Translations under genes and position numbers: made by a program | The notes under the pieces: generated by a model | The model's input: the letters and a program-made list of their open reading frames with translations, nothing else | The model's database searches: none | Told to the model about the DNA's origin: nothing | Part shown: positions 17,541 to 30,431 of the stretch, piece after piece | How positions within the stretch are numbered: the first letter of the stretch is position 1 | Layout: every line of letters starts with the position of its first letter | From: Chloroflexota bacterium | Lineage (GTDB): Bacteria; Chloroflexota; Limnocylindria; Limnocylindrales; CSP1-4 | Direction: 5' to 3' | Length of the DNA stretch: 33,100 bases | NCBI GenBank assembly: GCA_047519685.1 | Contig: JAPVSP010000427.1 | Coordinates: 1 to 33,100 of the forward strand

Positions 17541-17566
17541 GAGGCCGGCCCTCGCGGGCCGGCCTC
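17541..17566 (-). terminator. Intrinsic-terminator-like hairpin downstream of the SBP gene, at the end of the minus-strand pyrimidine operon
   Basis: GAGGCCGGCCC (17541-17551) / loop TCGC / GGGCCGGCCTC (17556-17566), a perfect 11-bp GC stem. On the minus strand it is followed by TTCGTGT. It lies 25 nt after the stop at 17591. Confidence 0.65.
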
Positions 17567-17590
17567 CTGTCCGTGGCGCCAGCGGACGGG

Positions 17591-18685
17591 TCAGTTGCCG
17601 CCCTCGTTGAGCGTGACGGTCGCCTTCGTCCAGGAAGCGCCCTTCGTGTCGGTCCCCGACGGGAGCGCGTCGAGCGCCGCCTTCGCCAGGTCGGTCTGGT
17701 ACGCACCGTCGGTCGGCTTGCTCTTCAGGACGCCGTACTTTGTCGCGATGTCCACCGTCTGGTTCCAGGCGGTCTGATCGAGCTGGCCGATGCCGTTCGG
17801 CGACGGCCAGATCAGCCCGTTGATCTCGTTCATCTGCCAGGTCTGGTGGCTCTTGCCGAGCTTCGACCCGTTCTTGATGACGATGTCGACGCAGGCGGCG
17901 GCGTTGTCGCGGCAGTAGATCCAGCCGCGGTAGCTCGCCTTGATGAACTTCGTGGCGATGTCCTTGTTGGTGCCCGTGGACAGCCACTTCGCCGAGGCGA
18001 AGATCATGTCCTGGAGCATCCCGGTGCCGACATCGTTGAGGTTGATGACGTTGAGGTCGGACGGCTGGTACAGATTGCCCGTCGTCGGGTTCTTCGCCTC
18101 GAGGACCTGCGCGTACTCGTTGTAGATCATGGCCTGGGCCGCATCGAGGTCGCCCGACAGCAGCCCGGACATGTCGAAGTTCTGCTTGATGACGCTGACG
18201 TCCTTCGTCGGGTCGAGGCCGACCTTGGCCATCGCCGCGAACACCTCGGGCTCATTGCCGAGCAGCCAGCTGCCGACCTTCTTGCCCTTCCAGTCCTCGG
18301 GCTTGGTGATGTTCTTGCCCTTGAAGGACACCTCCAGCGTGCCGGAGCGCTGGAAGATCTGGGCGATGTCCACGAGGTCCGTGCCGCCCTCGCGGGAGGC
18401 GAGCATCTTGGGGACCCAGGTGGTCCCGATGTCGGCGCCACCCGATGCCACGACGCTCATCGGGTTGATGTCCGGGCCACCGAGGAGGATCTTGACGTCG
18501 AGACCCTCGTCCTTGAAGTAGCCCTGATCCAGCGCGGCGTAGTAGCCCGCGAACTGCGCCTGGGCGACCCACTGGAGCTGGAACTTGACCGTGGTCAGCG
18601 TCCCACTCCCCCCGCTCGAGCTGCAGGCCCCAACCAGCAGCGCGGCGCCGGTGGCCAGCGCGATCGCCGACCGAGGCATCTTCAT
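17591..18685 (-). CDS. ABC transporter substrate-binding lipoprotein, NMT1/THI5/ThiY-like (NitT/TauT family)
   Basis: 364 aa from MKMPRSAIALATGAALLVGAC (lipobox). Very strong RBS GGAGGAGGAGGAG. Mature part FQLQWVAQAQFAGYYAALDQGYFKDEGLDV is typical of the NMT1/SsuA-like fold. The track ORF to 18913 is an over-extension. Confidence 0.85.
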   Translation of the reverse strand: MKMPRSAIALATGAALLVGACSSSGGSGTLTTVKFQLQWVAQAQFAGYYAALDQGYFKDEGLDVKILLGGPDINPMSVVASGGADIGTTWVPKMLASREGGTDLVDIAQIFQRSGTLEVSFKGKNITKPEDWKGKKVGSWLLGNEPEVFAAMAKVGLDPTKDVSVIKQNFDMSGLLSGDLDAAQAMIYNEYAQVLEAKNPTTGNLYQPSDLNVINLNDVGTGMLQDMIFASAKWLSTGTNKDIATKFIKASYRGWIYCRDNAAACVDIVIKNGSKLGKSHQTWQMNEINGLIWPSPNGIGQLDQTAWNQTVDIATKYGVLKSKPTDGAYQTDLAKAALDALPSGTDTKGASWTKATVTLNEGGN

Positions 18686-27627: not shown

Positions 27628-28853
27628 ATCCGGCCCCGAGCGCCGGGGTCGCGGCCCTCCCGGCGTTCACGGTCGCCCGGCTGCCGCGGATCGAGTTCGG
27701 GCCCGGCCGGTTCTCGGTCGTCCCCGAGGCGGTCGCGCGCCACGGCCAGCACGTCCTGCTCGTGACCGGCGGACGGTCGTTCCGGGCGAGCGGCCGCTGG
27801 GAGGGGCTCGTCGCGGCGCTCGACGGGATGGGCATCGCCCACGAGGAGCTGCGGGTCGAGGGCGAGCCGTCGCCCGATTCCGTGGACGAGGCCGTCGCTC
27901 GCTTCCGAGGCGGGCGGATCGACGTCGTCCTGGGGATCGGCGGCGGCAGCGCGCTCGACACGGCGAAGGCCGTCGCCGGCCTGCTCGCGACCGGGACGTC
28001 GGCCCGGGACCACCTGGAGGGCGTTGGTCCGGGGCTCCCCTACCCGGGCCCGGCGACGCCGTTCATCGCCGTCCCGACCACCGCCGGCACCGGCAGCGAG
28101 GCGACGAAGAACGCCGTCCTGAGCGTCCGCCGCGAAGGCGGCTTCAAGCGCTCGTTCCGCGACGAGCGGCTCGTGGCGCGTGAGGCCATGATCGACCCGG
28201 ACCTGCTGGTCGGCTGCCCGCCAGCGCTCATCGCCGCCGACGGGCTGGATGCCCTGACCCAGCTGCTCGAGTCGTACGTCTCGCTGGGGGCCGGCCCGTT
28301 CACCGACGCGCTCGCGCTGAGCGGGCTCGAGGCCGCCCGGGACGGCCTGCTCGAATGGCATCGGGCGGCCGTCGAGGGCGCCGACGCGCCCGACGGGCGC
28401 GTCCGGATGGCGTACGCCGCGCTGCTCTCGGGGATCTGCCTCGCTCAGGCCGGGCTGGGCGCGGTCCACGGGTTCGCCGCGGCCCTGGGGGCCTACTTCC
28501 CCATCCCCCACGGTGCCGCGTGCGGCGCGACCCTCGTCGCGGCGGTCGAGGCGAACCTCGCCGCCCTCGAGGCGCGCGAGCCGGCGAGCCCGGCGCTCGA
28601 ACGGTATGCGCGGCTCGGCCGGCTGCTCGGCCGGCTCCCGGAGGGGACGCCCGGTCCGGAGGCCCGGCGCACGCTGGTGGAGCGGCTCGGAGCCTGGACC
28701 GGAGCGCTGCGCATCCCTGGCCTCGCGGCCCACGGCGTCGGGAGCCGGGACGTCGAGCGGCTCGTCGGGGCGAGCCGCGGAAGCAGCATGCGGACGAACC
28801 CGATCGCACTCCGCGACGACGAGCTGGCCGCGATCCTGGAGCGGAGTCTCTGA
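27624..28853 (+). CDS. Iron-containing (group III) alcohol dehydrogenase; candidate malonic/methylmalonic semialdehyde reductase
   Basis: 409 aa. The GTG start overlaps the ABM stop (GTGA). Fe-ADH motifs GIGGGSALDTAKA, PTTAGTGSE, and His-rich metal-site region AVHGFAAALGAYFPIPHGAACG. Confidence 0.85.
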   Translation: MNPAPSAGVAALPAFTVARLPRIEFGPGRFSVVPEAVARHGQHVLLVTGGRSFRASGRWEGLVAALDGMGIAHEELRVEGEPSPDSVDEAVARFRGGRIDVVLGIGGGSALDTAKAVAGLLATGTSARDHLEGVGPGLPYPGPATPFIAVPTTAGTGSEATKNAVLSVRREGGFKRSFRDERLVAREAMIDPDLLVGCPPALIAADGLDALTQLLESYVSLGAGPFTDALALSGLEAARDGLLEWHRAAVEGADAPDGRVRMAYAALLSGICLAQAGLGAVHGFAAALGAYFPIPHGAACGATLVAAVEANLAALEAREPASPALERYARLGRLLGRLPEGTPGPEARRTLVERLGAWTGALRIPGLAAHGVGSRDVERLVGASRGSSMRTNPIALRDDELAAILERSL

Positions 28854-28892
28854 GGGCGGTCCCGGCGCCGGGCGACCGCGCCCCCGGCCCGG

Positions 28893-30431
28893 CTACCGCG
28901 TCCGCGGGAAGCCCAGGTCCACCTTCGAGGTGCCCGGATCCGGCCAGCGAGCCGTGACGACCTTCGCCCGCGTGTAGAACTGGATGCCCTCGGGGCCATA
29001 CATGTGCAGGTCGCCGAACAGCGAGGCCTTCCAGCCGCCGAAGCTGTAGTAGGCGACGGGGACCGGGATCGGCACGTTGACGCCGACCATCCCGACGTTG
29101 ACGTCGAACTGGAACTGGCGAGCCGCGCCGCCGTCGCGCGTGTAGATCGCCGTCCCGTTGCCGTAGGGGTTCGAGTTGATGAGCTCGACCGCGTCGGCGT
29201 AGGTCGGCACGCGGACGATCTCGAGCACCGGCCCGAAGATCTCGTTCCGGTAGCACTCCATCTCGGGGCTCACCCGGTCGAGGAGCGAGACGCCGAGGAA
29301 GAAGCCCTCGCCCTTCTGGTAGAGGACGTGCTGCCGCCCGTCGACGACGAGGTCGGCGCCCTGGGCCTTCCCGCTCTCGAGATACGAGGCGACCTTGTCC
29401 CGGTGCTCGCGGGTGACGAGCGGGCCCATCTCGGCCTCGGGGTCGGTTCCCGGGCCGACCTTGACCCTCGGGAGACGGGTCTTGATGGCCTCGACGAGCG
29501 GGTCGGCGACGGCGCCGACCGCCACGACGACGCTGATCGCCATGCAGCGCTCGCCGGCCGAGCCGTAGGCCGCCGAGACGGCCGCGTCGGCCGCCATCCC
29601 GATGTCGGCGTCGGGCAGGACGAGCATGTGGTTCTTCGCACCGCCGAGGGCCTGGACGCGCTTCCCGTGCTTCGTGCCGGTCTCGTAGATGTAGCGGGCG
29701 ATCGGCGTCGAGCCGACGAAGCTGACCGCGGCGAGGTCAGGGTGCTCGAGCAGCCGGTCCACGGCGACCTTGTCGCCCTGGACGACGTTGAACACGCCAT
29801 CGGGCACGCCCGCCTCCTGGAGCAGCTCGGCGAGGTAGAGCGAGGCGGACGGGTCCTTCTCGGACGGCTTGAGGACGAACGTGTTCCCGCAGGCGATGGC
29901 GTTGCCGAACATCCACATCGGGACCATCGCCGGGAAGTTGAACGGGGTGATGCCGGCGACGACACCGAGCGGCTGGCGGATCTGGTAGACGTCGATACCG
30001 GTCGACACCTGCTCGGAGAAGCCGCCCTTGAGCAGGTGCGGGATGCCCGTCGCGAACTCCAGGTTCTCCAGGCCGCGGGCGACCTCGCCGAGCGCGTCGG
30101 ACGGGACCTTGCCGTGCTCCGCCGTGAGCAGGGCCGCGATCTCCCGGCGATGCGCGTCGACGAGATTCCGGATGCGGAACAGGATCTCGGTCCGCCGGGA
30201 GAGCGAGAGCGCGCGCCAGGCCGGGAAGACCGCCTTCGCCGCCGCCACGGCCGCGTCCACCTCCGCGACCGCCGCGAAGTCGACCTGACGGGCGAGGGCG
30301 CCCGTTGCCGGGTCGTAGACAGGGCCGGAGCGGCCCGAGGTGCCGGCGACGCGACGGCCGCCGATCCAGTGCTGGACGCGCGTCGCCGCGTGTGGCGTGG
30401 TCGTGGCCCGGGGCTCTGCGAGCTGCGTCAT
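28893..30431 (-). CDS. mmsA: CoA-acylating methylmalonate-/malonate-semialdehyde dehydrogenase
   Basis: 512 aa from MTQLAEP. ALDH-family motifs ITPFNFPAMVPMW, FVLKPSEKDP, FVGSTPIARYIY, GGAKNH, catalytic Cys context GSAGERCMA. Typical MmsA C-terminus FYTRAKVVTARW. The track ORF 28893..32924 is a read-through artefact upstream of this start. Confidence 0.9.
   Translation of the reverse strand: MTQLAEPRATTTPHAATRVQHWIGGRRVAGTSGRSGPVYDPATGALARQVDFAAVAEVDAAVAAAKAVFPAWRALSLSRRTEILFRIRNLVDAHRREIAALLTAEHGKVPSDALGEVARGLENLEFATGIPHLLKGGFSEQVSTGIDVYQIRQPLGVVAGITPFNFPAMVPMWMFGNAIACGNTFVLKPSEKDPSASLYLAELLQEAGVPDGVFNVVQGDKVAVDRLLEHPDLAAVSFVGSTPIARYIYETGTKHGKRVQALGGAKNHMLVLPDADIGMAADAAVSAAYGSAGERCMAISVVVAVGAVADPLVEAIKTRLPRVKVGPGTDPEAEMGPLVTREHRDKVASYLESGKAQGADLVVDGRQHVLYQKGEGFFLGVSLLDRVSPEMECYRNEIFGPVLEIVRVPTYADAVELINSNPYGNGTAIYTRDGGAARQFQFDVNVGMVGVNVPIPVPVAYYSFGGWKASLFGDLHMYGPEGIQFYTRAKVVTARWPDPGTSKVDLGFPRTR

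Follow-up and report, generated by a model that had tools for sequence, protein, structure and literature searches.

The reductive catabolism of uracil and thymine is textbook metabolism, and its first enzyme is known, to our knowledge, only in the form of NAD(P)H- or ferredoxin-dependent FeS-flavoproteins. In this work, we analyzed a locus (positions 17541 to 30431) within a 33,100-nucleotide stretch of DNA, hereafter the window, which corresponds to contig JAPVSP010000427.1 (positions 1 to 33,100) of a Chloroflexota (Limnocylindria) metagenome-assembled genome (MAG) from soil, with 3.1 Mb in 580 contigs, 92.6% completeness and 4.4% contamination. Our results indicate that this region is very probably a reductive pyrimidine catabolic locus, in which ring reduction would correspond to an oxidoreductase of the luciferase-like monooxygenase (LLM) class belonging to family TIGR03842. 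The described types of Pyd clusters, its closest known counterparts, comprise PydA-E, MSDH and a ferredoxin-dependent PydAc (PMC7332683). The chemistry following the reduction is the same in those clusters and in the locus studied here, namely dihydropyrimidinase, decarbamoylase, β-alanine aminotransferase, and malonic semialdehyde dehydrogenase and/or reductase. Conversely, no PydA is encoded in the present cluster and a Mer-like F420-type LLM lies between PydC and PydB; uptake is assigned to an NMT1/ThiY-type ABC importer and not to an NCS1/NCS2 permease; PydC is a short CN-hydrolase (285 aa) instead of the M20 type common in bacteria; there is no regulator gene; and the pathway genes are interspersed with those of an ABM protein and of a small membrane protein.

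Other described systems resemble individual parts of the locus. Family TIGR03842 is named as the hypothetical equivalog F420_CPS_4043, and the nearest structures to the LLM are those of F420-dependent Mer enzymes (1f07, 1z69, 8qpm), with a full-length alignment of 134 bits; however, since there is no methanopterin metabolism here and the conserved neighbors are pyrimidine-catabolic, the substrate must differ from that of Mer. Members of the same LLM family (~46% identity) are found in cassettes on plasmids of the Rhodobacterales Leisingera caerulea and Paracoccus alcaliphilus, and the Leisingera one also adjoins dihydropyrimidinase, decarbamoylase, aminotransferase and nucleobase transporter genes; in those cassettes the LLM is accompanied by complete F420 biosynthesis and an NADPH:F420 reductase, whereas in the present genome cofC, cofD and cofE lie apart from the LLM, Fo synthase is missing and Fno was not detected. 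A precedent for uracil C5=C6 reduction by a deazaflavin/flavin-type oxidoreductase is SSGG-03002/NpsU, an F420/FMN-type enzyme genetically required for this reaction in mureidomycin, for which in vitro activity was not obtained (PMC10714638). NpsU acts on a uridyl-peptide antibiotic (napsamycin, mureidomycin) and not on free bases. In uricolytic clusters of Chloroflexota, a putative F420 "luciferase family" enzyme replaces the PydA-like yanthine reductases YgfK and UacX (PMC12507026; 2025).

The gene layout was established by GC3 frame analysis together with Pfam and NCBIfam scans, and all 13 genes of an earlier reading of this stretch (the original prediction) were recovered in the order claimed, with small coordinate corrections. 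The minus-strand unit consists of a class-III aminotransferase, a permease, an ABC ATPase, a second permease, a substrate-binding protein (SBP) and a hairpin, and the plus-strand unit of CN-hydrolase, LLM, an 81-aa open reading frame (ORF), dihydropyrimidinase, ABM protein and an iron-containing alcohol dehydrogenase (Fe-ADH), followed by a convergent aldehyde dehydrogenase gene. The genes assigned to the pathway itself are as follows:

24103..25116, plus strand: LLM-class F420-dependent oxidoreductase, candidate uracil/thymine reductase (pathway step 1); TIGR03842, 436.5 bits
25741..27138, plus strand: dihydropyrimidinase/D-hydantoinase (pathway step 2, PydB); TIGR02033, 566 bits, cut-off 393
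23167..24024, plus strand: CN-hydrolase, probable β-ureidopropionase (pathway step 3); PF00795, 212 bits; 285 aa
21489..22835, minus strand: class-III aminotransferase, probable β-alanine/β-aminoisobutyrate transaminase (PydD-like); PF00202, 290 bits
28893..30431, minus strand: CoA-acylating methylmalonate/malonate-semialdehyde dehydrogenase (MMSDH); TIGR01722, 722.8 bits, cut-off 448.5

The LLM, called as a protein of 337 aa, exceeds the TIGR03842 cut-off of 295.45 bits and covers model positions 1-329. RutA (TIGR03612) is not among the 17 families that it matches at E <= 1e-10, and the Pfam and NCBIfam scans of the locus revealed no homologues of RutB-F. In the literature we found no function assigned to TIGR03842 and no description of F420-dependent uracil reduction in catabolism. 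The original prediction had seen this gene and given it no role, yet it proved to be the best conserved partner of the dihydropyrimidinase. Among 151 genomes of the class Limnocylindria, which constitute our co-occurrence set, the LLM was found in 127 and the dihydropyrimidinase in 130; 122 carry both and 16 neither, with 5 having the LLM alone and 8 the dihydropyrimidinase alone. A canonical dihydropyrimidine dehydrogenase (DPD) is lacking in 115 of the 127 LLM-positive genomes, and 110 of these 115 have the dihydropyrimidinase.

The LLM protein was used to retrieve loci of 80 related species (77-85% identity), in which the gene neighborhood was compared; their MAGs are labeled as Limnocylindria, Limnocylindrales or more broadly Chloroflexota, with one Verrucomicrobiia, and most gaps in the gene counts of this set correspond to contig ends. 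The arrangement is not due to chance, as the CN-hydrolase gene precedes the LLM gene in 72 of the 80 loci and the dihydropyrimidinase gene follows it in 59, and many of them also keep the relative positions of the aminotransferase, ABC and aldehyde dehydrogenase genes; no DPD gene was found within 10 kb of the LLM in any of the 80. In a relative with a 1.4-Mb genome (L091), the CN-hydrolase, LLM and dihydropyrimidinase genes form a tight operon. Another relative (G004) harbors two paralogous clusters: in the first (contig C9) the LLM adjoins the dihydropyrimidinase, and the second (L094) contains an aminotransferase gene divergent from CN-hydrolase, dihydropyrimidinase, DPD and aldehyde dehydrogenase genes; therefore, the LLM and the classical enzyme occupy equivalent slots.

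The association extends beyond the class. TIGR03842 members were identified in 15 other Chloroflexota genomes from seven families outside Limnocylindria, and in 13 of these loci only a few kb separate the LLM from a dihydropyrimidinase gene, the other two ending at contig edges. Gene orders are shuffled in these 15 loci, NMT1-type ABC genes occur in many, an M20 hydrolase replaces the CN-hydrolase in some, and two carry cofD-cofC-cofE-npdG alongside. In Streptomyces rimosus and Streptomyces sp. BHT-5-2, the dihydropyrimidinase and LLM genes are directly adjacent, with CN-hydrolase and aminotransferase genes nearby. On Leisingera plasmids, a cofG-cofH-cofD-cofC-cofE-npdG operon ends with the LLM gene and is divergent from pntAB, hydA and the genes of an aminotransferase, an M20 hydrolase and an NCS1 nucleobase transporter. 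In Paracoccus alcaliphilus, an ABC importer is encoded after the cof-LLM cassette, and its binding protein and permease are distantly similar (~23% identity) to those of this locus. A neighborhood that is rearranged yet conserved, in which the step-3 enzyme is replaced and DPD is substituted in paralogous clusters, bears the classic signature of a functional partner. Because ring reduction is the only pathway step left open, it constitutes the candidate role; and given the co-occurrence, the kept neighborhood, the Leisingera cof operon and the paralogous clusters of G004, the LLM is probably an F420H2-dependent uracil/thymine reductase. As side observations, the L. caerulea plasmid (NZ_CP081088.1) carries its cof-npdG-LLM cassette beside a PydA-less set of Pyd genes and pntAB, a self-contained cofG-cofH-cofD-cofC-cofE-npdG-LLM cassette is also present on the P. 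alcaliphilus plasmid, and such plasmid cassettes may be relevant to the question of F420 production in some Proteobacteria.

The use of F420 by the LLM is suggested by its nearest structures, which are F420 enzymes, by the cofD-cofC-cofE genes of the same genome (contig C171:4051-6487), and by the membership of its homologues in cof operons of Rhodobacterales. Several observations weigh against the assignment. Fo synthase is absent from this genome, and neither Fno nor a true F420-dependent glucose-6-phosphate dehydrogenase (FGD) was found in it, the best FGD-like LLM reaching 230 bits versus a cut-off of 420. In the class, Fo synthase (CofH model) was detected in only 3 of 151 genomes although CofD is present in 120, so that these bacteria would have to salvage Fo or F420, and ~17 LLM-positive genomes of one family (f3) have no CofD hit. 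Mer, the nearest characterized relative, reduces an iminium C=N bond and not an enone C=C bond, and we found no publication in which a TIGR03842 protein was tested biochemically or genetically. Moreover, a complete canonical DPD is present, so that the pathway of this genome could be closed without the LLM. With regard to the cofactor, the class looks like a deazaflavin auxotroph that would complete F420 from salvaged Fo. In favor of a link to F420, the dihydropyrimidinase and LLM genes share a contig with cofD throughout family f4 (L093 and about 35 further genomes), at a distance of 4-12 kb, and in L093 cofD forms part of a cofE-cofC-cofD set; in the family of the window, cofD is ~80-165 kb away or on another contig. 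Many F420-type LLMs occur in the class, one of them in the window itself (14077-15435).

The missing PydA of the original prediction holds for the window, where no DHO_dh/PreA-type gene was found, and fails for the genome. Contig C144 (3250-5925) encodes a fused PreT-PreA protein of 891 aa with the classical domain order of PydA (Fer4_20, Pyr_redox_2, DHO_dh, Fer4_21), which scores 613 bits against the PreA equivalog NF006183 (cut-off 335) and has unrelated neighbors, namely an ABC-2 exporter and a β-galactosidase. As the MAG consists of 580 contigs with 4.4% estimated contamination, the attribution of contig C144 to this bacterium depends on binning and a similar G+C content (0.728 versus 0.715). 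Canonical PreA is present in only 12 of the 151 genomes of the class, all of them LLM-positive. The main alternative, in our view rather unlikely, is that the C144 dehydrogenase performs the first step in this organism and that the LLM has another redox task linked to the pathway, such as the redox conversion of a C3 product (malonic semialdehyde, 3-hydroxypropionate) or of a modified pyrimidine or other ureide, or that it uses a flavin and not F420. The presence of the fused enzyme, the near absence of Fo synthase from the class, the lack of Fno in this genome and of CofD in some LLM-positive genomes are in line with this alternative, as is the fact that other F420-type LLMs (Adf, FGD and hydroxymycolate dehydrogenase, which are more distant matches) act on alcohols or carbonyls. 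Against it, the 115 LLM-positive genomes without the canonical enzyme nearly all keep the dihydropyrimidinase; the three-gene operon of L091 includes no semialdehyde enzymes; the LLM and DPD hold equivalent slots within one genome; and the nucleobase permease, pntAB and Fno of the Leisingera set point to a reductive step on the base. On balance, we favor the role of the LLM as a uracil/thymine reductase.

Further observations were made on proteins related to the canonical enzyme. Orthologues of the C144 gene lie within ~3 kb of a second dihydropyrimidinase copy in three genomes (G004, G104, G054), and a full second, canonical Pyd cluster was confirmed in G004. Two further DHO_dh-type proteins fall under both the PyrD and PreA cut-offs. 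One of them, the only other DHO_dh-like candidate of this genome (contig C3:2180-3310), was considered as a hidden class-wide PydA and dropped, as it occurs in only 4 of the 151 genomes. The other, a short PreA-like form (model positions 2-329, ~290-313 bits), was found in 10 genomes; in three of them (G154:C95, G085:C1 and G077:C12) its gene is separated by only a few kb from that of a dihydropyrimidinase, and in G154 also from that of the LLM.

The enzymes for the remaining steps are the part of the original prediction that stood, as uptake, ring opening, decarbamoylation, transamination and semialdehyde disposal are all represented, while its points on PydA, the LLM, the importer, the ABM protein with the Fe-ADH, and the "island" required correction. 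The dihydropyrimidinase gene starts at ATG 25741, preceded by the ribosome-binding site (RBS) GGAGGAG, and not at 25450, where a longer ORF begins; its product aligns at ~505 bits with Bacillus D-hydantoinases and a Brevibacillus dihydropyrimidinase, and keeps all metal-ligand motifs (DAHTH, FKLF, HAENG, VHLS and TDHCP). As in D-hydantoinase/D-carbamoylase (hyu) systems, the ring opener belongs to TIGR02033 and is 55-60% identical to crystallized D-hydantoinases. Therein lies one alternative, which we consider improbable: that the locus serves the use of hydantoins or dihydropyrimidines (cyclic ureides), taking up rings that are already reduced or carry a 5-substituent (for instance, D-hydantoins or dihydropyrimidines derived from decaying biomass), in which case a ring reductase would not be required. 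Besides the similarity of the dihydropyrimidinase to enzymes crystallized as D-hydantoinases, this would agree with the lack of PydA in the locus. However, the decarbamoylase lies outside the D-carbamoylase subfamily, because the CN-hydrolase scores 209 bits against plant N-carbamoylputrescine amidase (5h8i) and ~175 against animal β-ureidopropionases versus only ~85 (78-88) against D-carbamoylases in the PDB; the refutation that the original prediction had anticipated, namely a hydantoinase and a CN-hydrolase of the D-amino-acid subfamilies with other conserved neighbors, was thus not what we observed. The conserved class-III aminotransferase and MMSDH suit β-amino acids (β-alanine and β-aminoisobutyrate) and not α-amino acids, the most conserved gene of all, the LLM, would be left without a role, and the Leisingera set includes an NCS1 nucleobase transporter.

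The intact Glu-Lys-Cys triad of the CN-hydrolase is found in motifs LFQELF, YRKTHIP and ICYD. Its best single PDB and NCBIfam matches are N-carbamoylputrescine amidases (5h8i, and TIGR03381 (AguB) at 264 bits), which raises the possibility that the locus serves agmatine/putrescine catabolism, with the aminotransferase and aldehyde dehydrogenase acting on putrescine-derived compounds. We regard this as very improbable and dropped the polyamine reading, for the TIGR03381 score is far under the cut-off of 410 bits, and an agmatine deiminase (AguA; PF04371) is encoded nowhere in the genome; furthermore, the aldehyde dehydrogenase is an MMSDH and not an aminobutyraldehyde dehydrogenase, the CN-hydrolase is linked to the dihydropyrimidinase in three phyla, and an M20 hydrolase takes its place in some clusters. 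No equivalog model was passed by the CN-hydrolase, and its context together with the absent AguA favor a β-ureidopropionase role. The aminotransferase scores 520 bits against NF004718, over the cut-off of 472, and its gene is divergent from that of the CN-hydrolase in 51 of the 80 related loci; the convergent aldehyde dehydrogenase gene is kept in 34. It also counts against the pathway assignment that the CN-hydrolase, the aminotransferase and the Fe-ADH stay below equivalog level, their substrates being read from context because no equivalog-level model was reached.

Taking the reductive pyrimidine pathway as the preferred reading, we propose that the locus would allow this Limnocylindria bacterium to use uracil and thymine as nitrogen and carbon source. 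The base would be imported by the ThiY/NMT1-type ABC importer, and its C5=C6 bond would be reduced by the TIGR03842 LLM with hydride from reduced F420, as comparative genomics suggests, yielding the dihydropyrimidine; the same reduction could be performed here by the fused PreT-PreA of the classical NAD(P)H type, which is encoded outside the locus. The ring would then be opened by the dihydropyrimidinase, a clear member of its family, and the product cleaved by the CN-hydrolase, as its clade and context suggest, to NH3, CO2 and β-alanine or β-aminoisobutyrate, from which the class-III aminotransferase would remove the second nitrogen. The resulting semialdehyde would be oxidized to acetyl-CoA or propionyl-CoA by the MMSDH, whose family membership is likewise clear, or, in this lineage, may instead be reduced by the accessory Fe-ADH coupled to the ABM protein.

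We give about even chances to the broader proposal that TIGR03842 represents an undescribed class of dihydropyrimidine dehydrogenase (single-subunit, Fe-S-free and F420H2-dependent) that would be the usual entry to the pathway in most Limnocylindria, other Chloroflexota, Streptomyces and some Rhodobacterales. If so, a step of classical metabolism would have gained a new class of enzyme that relies on F420 and dispenses with FeS clusters, and a widespread hypothetical-equivalog family would be given a function. F420 would gain a mainstream role in nucleobase catabolism and a physiological reason in Chloroflexota and Proteobacteria, the presence of a whole cofGHDCE-fno cassette in some of the latter could be explained, and the pathway of Limnocylindria would run on environmental deazaflavin, as 148 of the 151 genomes lack Fo synthase and 120 have cofD. 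The near absence of Fo synthase from a class rich in F420-type enzymes raises the question of cofactor sharing in soil. A genome with both an LLM-type locus and the classical dehydrogenase, and a relative with two complete paralogous clusters, offer a natural comparison of both solutions.

The importer encoded downstream of the aminotransferase, and the hairpin that follows it, comprise:

20551..21483, minus strand: ABC permease 1; PF00528, 73 bits; start GTG 21483 just past the aminotransferase stop
19635..20528, minus strand: ABC ATPase (NitT/TauT-type); PF00005, 113 bits
18805..19638, minus strand: ABC permease 2; PF00528; start GTG 19638 overlapping the ATPase stop
17591..18685, minus strand: substrate-binding lipoprotein (SBP) of the NMT1/THI5 (ThiY-like) family; PF09084, 131 bits
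17541..17566, minus strand: GC-rich hairpin 3' of the SBP gene, probable high-GC intrinsic terminator; GAGGCCGGCCC-GCGA-GGGCCGGCCTC

With a PF09084 SBP, two PF00528 permeases and a PF00005 ATPase, the predicted make-up corresponds to the NMT1/THI5-ThiY type of importer. The SBP gene starts at ATG 18685 with RBS GGAGGAGGAGGAG, and its product has a signal peptide and the lipobox LVGAC; in the PDB, it is closest to 4nmy and to 3ix1, a ThiY that binds a pyrimidine. The best NCBIfam matches of the ATPase are SaoA, nitrate and taurine ATPases, all under cut-off. The original prediction had listed an ABC importer in place of a uracil/allantoin-type permease as a peculiarity of this locus; the importer is indeed present and is no oddity, as SBP orthologues flank the LLM and dihydropyrimidinase genes in other Chloroflexota families, in several of which the importer is a conserved partner of both genes. 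The strong terminator claimed after the SBP gene was borne out by a perfect 11-bp GC hairpin with a folding energy of -41.8 kcal/mol (z = -3.5; 0 of 200 shuffles as good), which is probably an intrinsic terminator without a U-tract; as it has no U-tract, it was missed by the simple scan for consensus promoters and terminators, which gave no match.

Three further genes lie between or downstream of the pathway genes on the plus strand:

27304..27627, plus strand: ABM-fold protein (LsrG/DUF176-like); PF03992, 60 bits
27624..28853, plus strand: Fe-ADH, possible (methyl)malonic semialdehyde reductase (PydE-like exit); PF00465 and PF25137
25284..25529, plus strand: conserved small membrane protein, 81 aa; motif RDP[WF][WF]D.[ED]G, Arg-rich stretch and transmembrane helix

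The ABM protein scores 89 bits against the LsrG model, under the cut-off of 135, and 127 bits against PDB entry 2omo (88 bits against LsrG). Its gene overlaps that of the Fe-ADH by 4 nt, an arrangement by which translation of the two is predicted to be coupled. For the Fe-ADH no NCBIfam equivalog was reached and the assignment is at family level only; its homologues are at most 70% identical, those from Limnocylindria belonging to the same locus, with ABM, and a proteobacterial one having neither ABM nor the locus context. Both genes are absent from most of the 80 related loci, and they occur as an overlapping or closely adjacent pair after the dihydropyrimidinase gene in three further loci (L112, L113/L114), with ABM also in L079. 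Thus, the ABM protein that the original prediction had counted as a distinguishing feature is present, and together with the Fe-ADH constitutes an accessory pair of few lineages only. A relationship of ABM to the DUF1330 proteins near the Rhodobacterales cassettes was considered and dropped, as there is no detectable similarity.

The motif of the 81-aa protein occurs once in its own genome. It was also found in 10 related loci, where its position is invariably right after the LLM, and the ORF is, as judged from this conservation, a real gene for a small membrane protein, which has no Pfam or NCBIfam family match. In two of the loci (L044 and L049) the small membrane protein is fused to a secreted domain of ~400 aa, and in seven others that domain is encoded by a separate gene.

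The two units are separated by the following region:

22836..23166, no strand assigned: divergent control region with -10-like TANNNT elements common to relatives

The -10-like hexamers are preceded by GGTG, as in GGTGTAGACT here and GGTGTACCCT and GGTGTACGCT in relatives, and on the other strand a 12-nt block, ATTACAGCACAT, is shared with one related locus (L027). No conserved palindrome and no sigma-70 consensus match were found in this region, and the TANNNT elements are probably divergent promoters rather than an operator. An Rfam scan of 16.5-31 kb for riboswitches and known RNAs gave a single match of chance level. The absence of a regulator gene was confirmed, as no transcription-factor gene is present within 14-33 kb of the window, and no consistent regulator was found among the related loci either.

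By contrast, the description of the region as an island of unusual composition was misleading: the G+C content of the window (~72%) is like that of the host, the genes that flank it in relatives have housekeeping functions (lgt, malate/lactate dehydrogenase, PEP carboxykinase, S8 peptidase), and therefore the locus is chromosomal, in a conserved neighborhood, and not a mobile island. In the window, the upstream side comprises the F420-type LLM mentioned above (14077-15435), which belongs to TIGR03560, and, between this LLM and the locus, an AsnA-type aspartate-ammonia ligase (15254-16528; PF03590, 272 bits) and a protein of 255 aa (16616-17383) whose sole match, to DUF4886, is weak; the latter two are not regulators and are not kept beside the locus in relatives. 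In 16 related loci, a SnoaL/NTF2-like protein of ~140 aa is encoded upstream of the CN-hydrolase on the same strand (for instance, L074:8563-8991), immediately so in most of them; this gene is absent from the window, and in the Rhodobacterales cassettes a DUF1330 protein is found nearby instead. Small alpha+beta barrel proteins recur around the module, without detectable mutual similarity.

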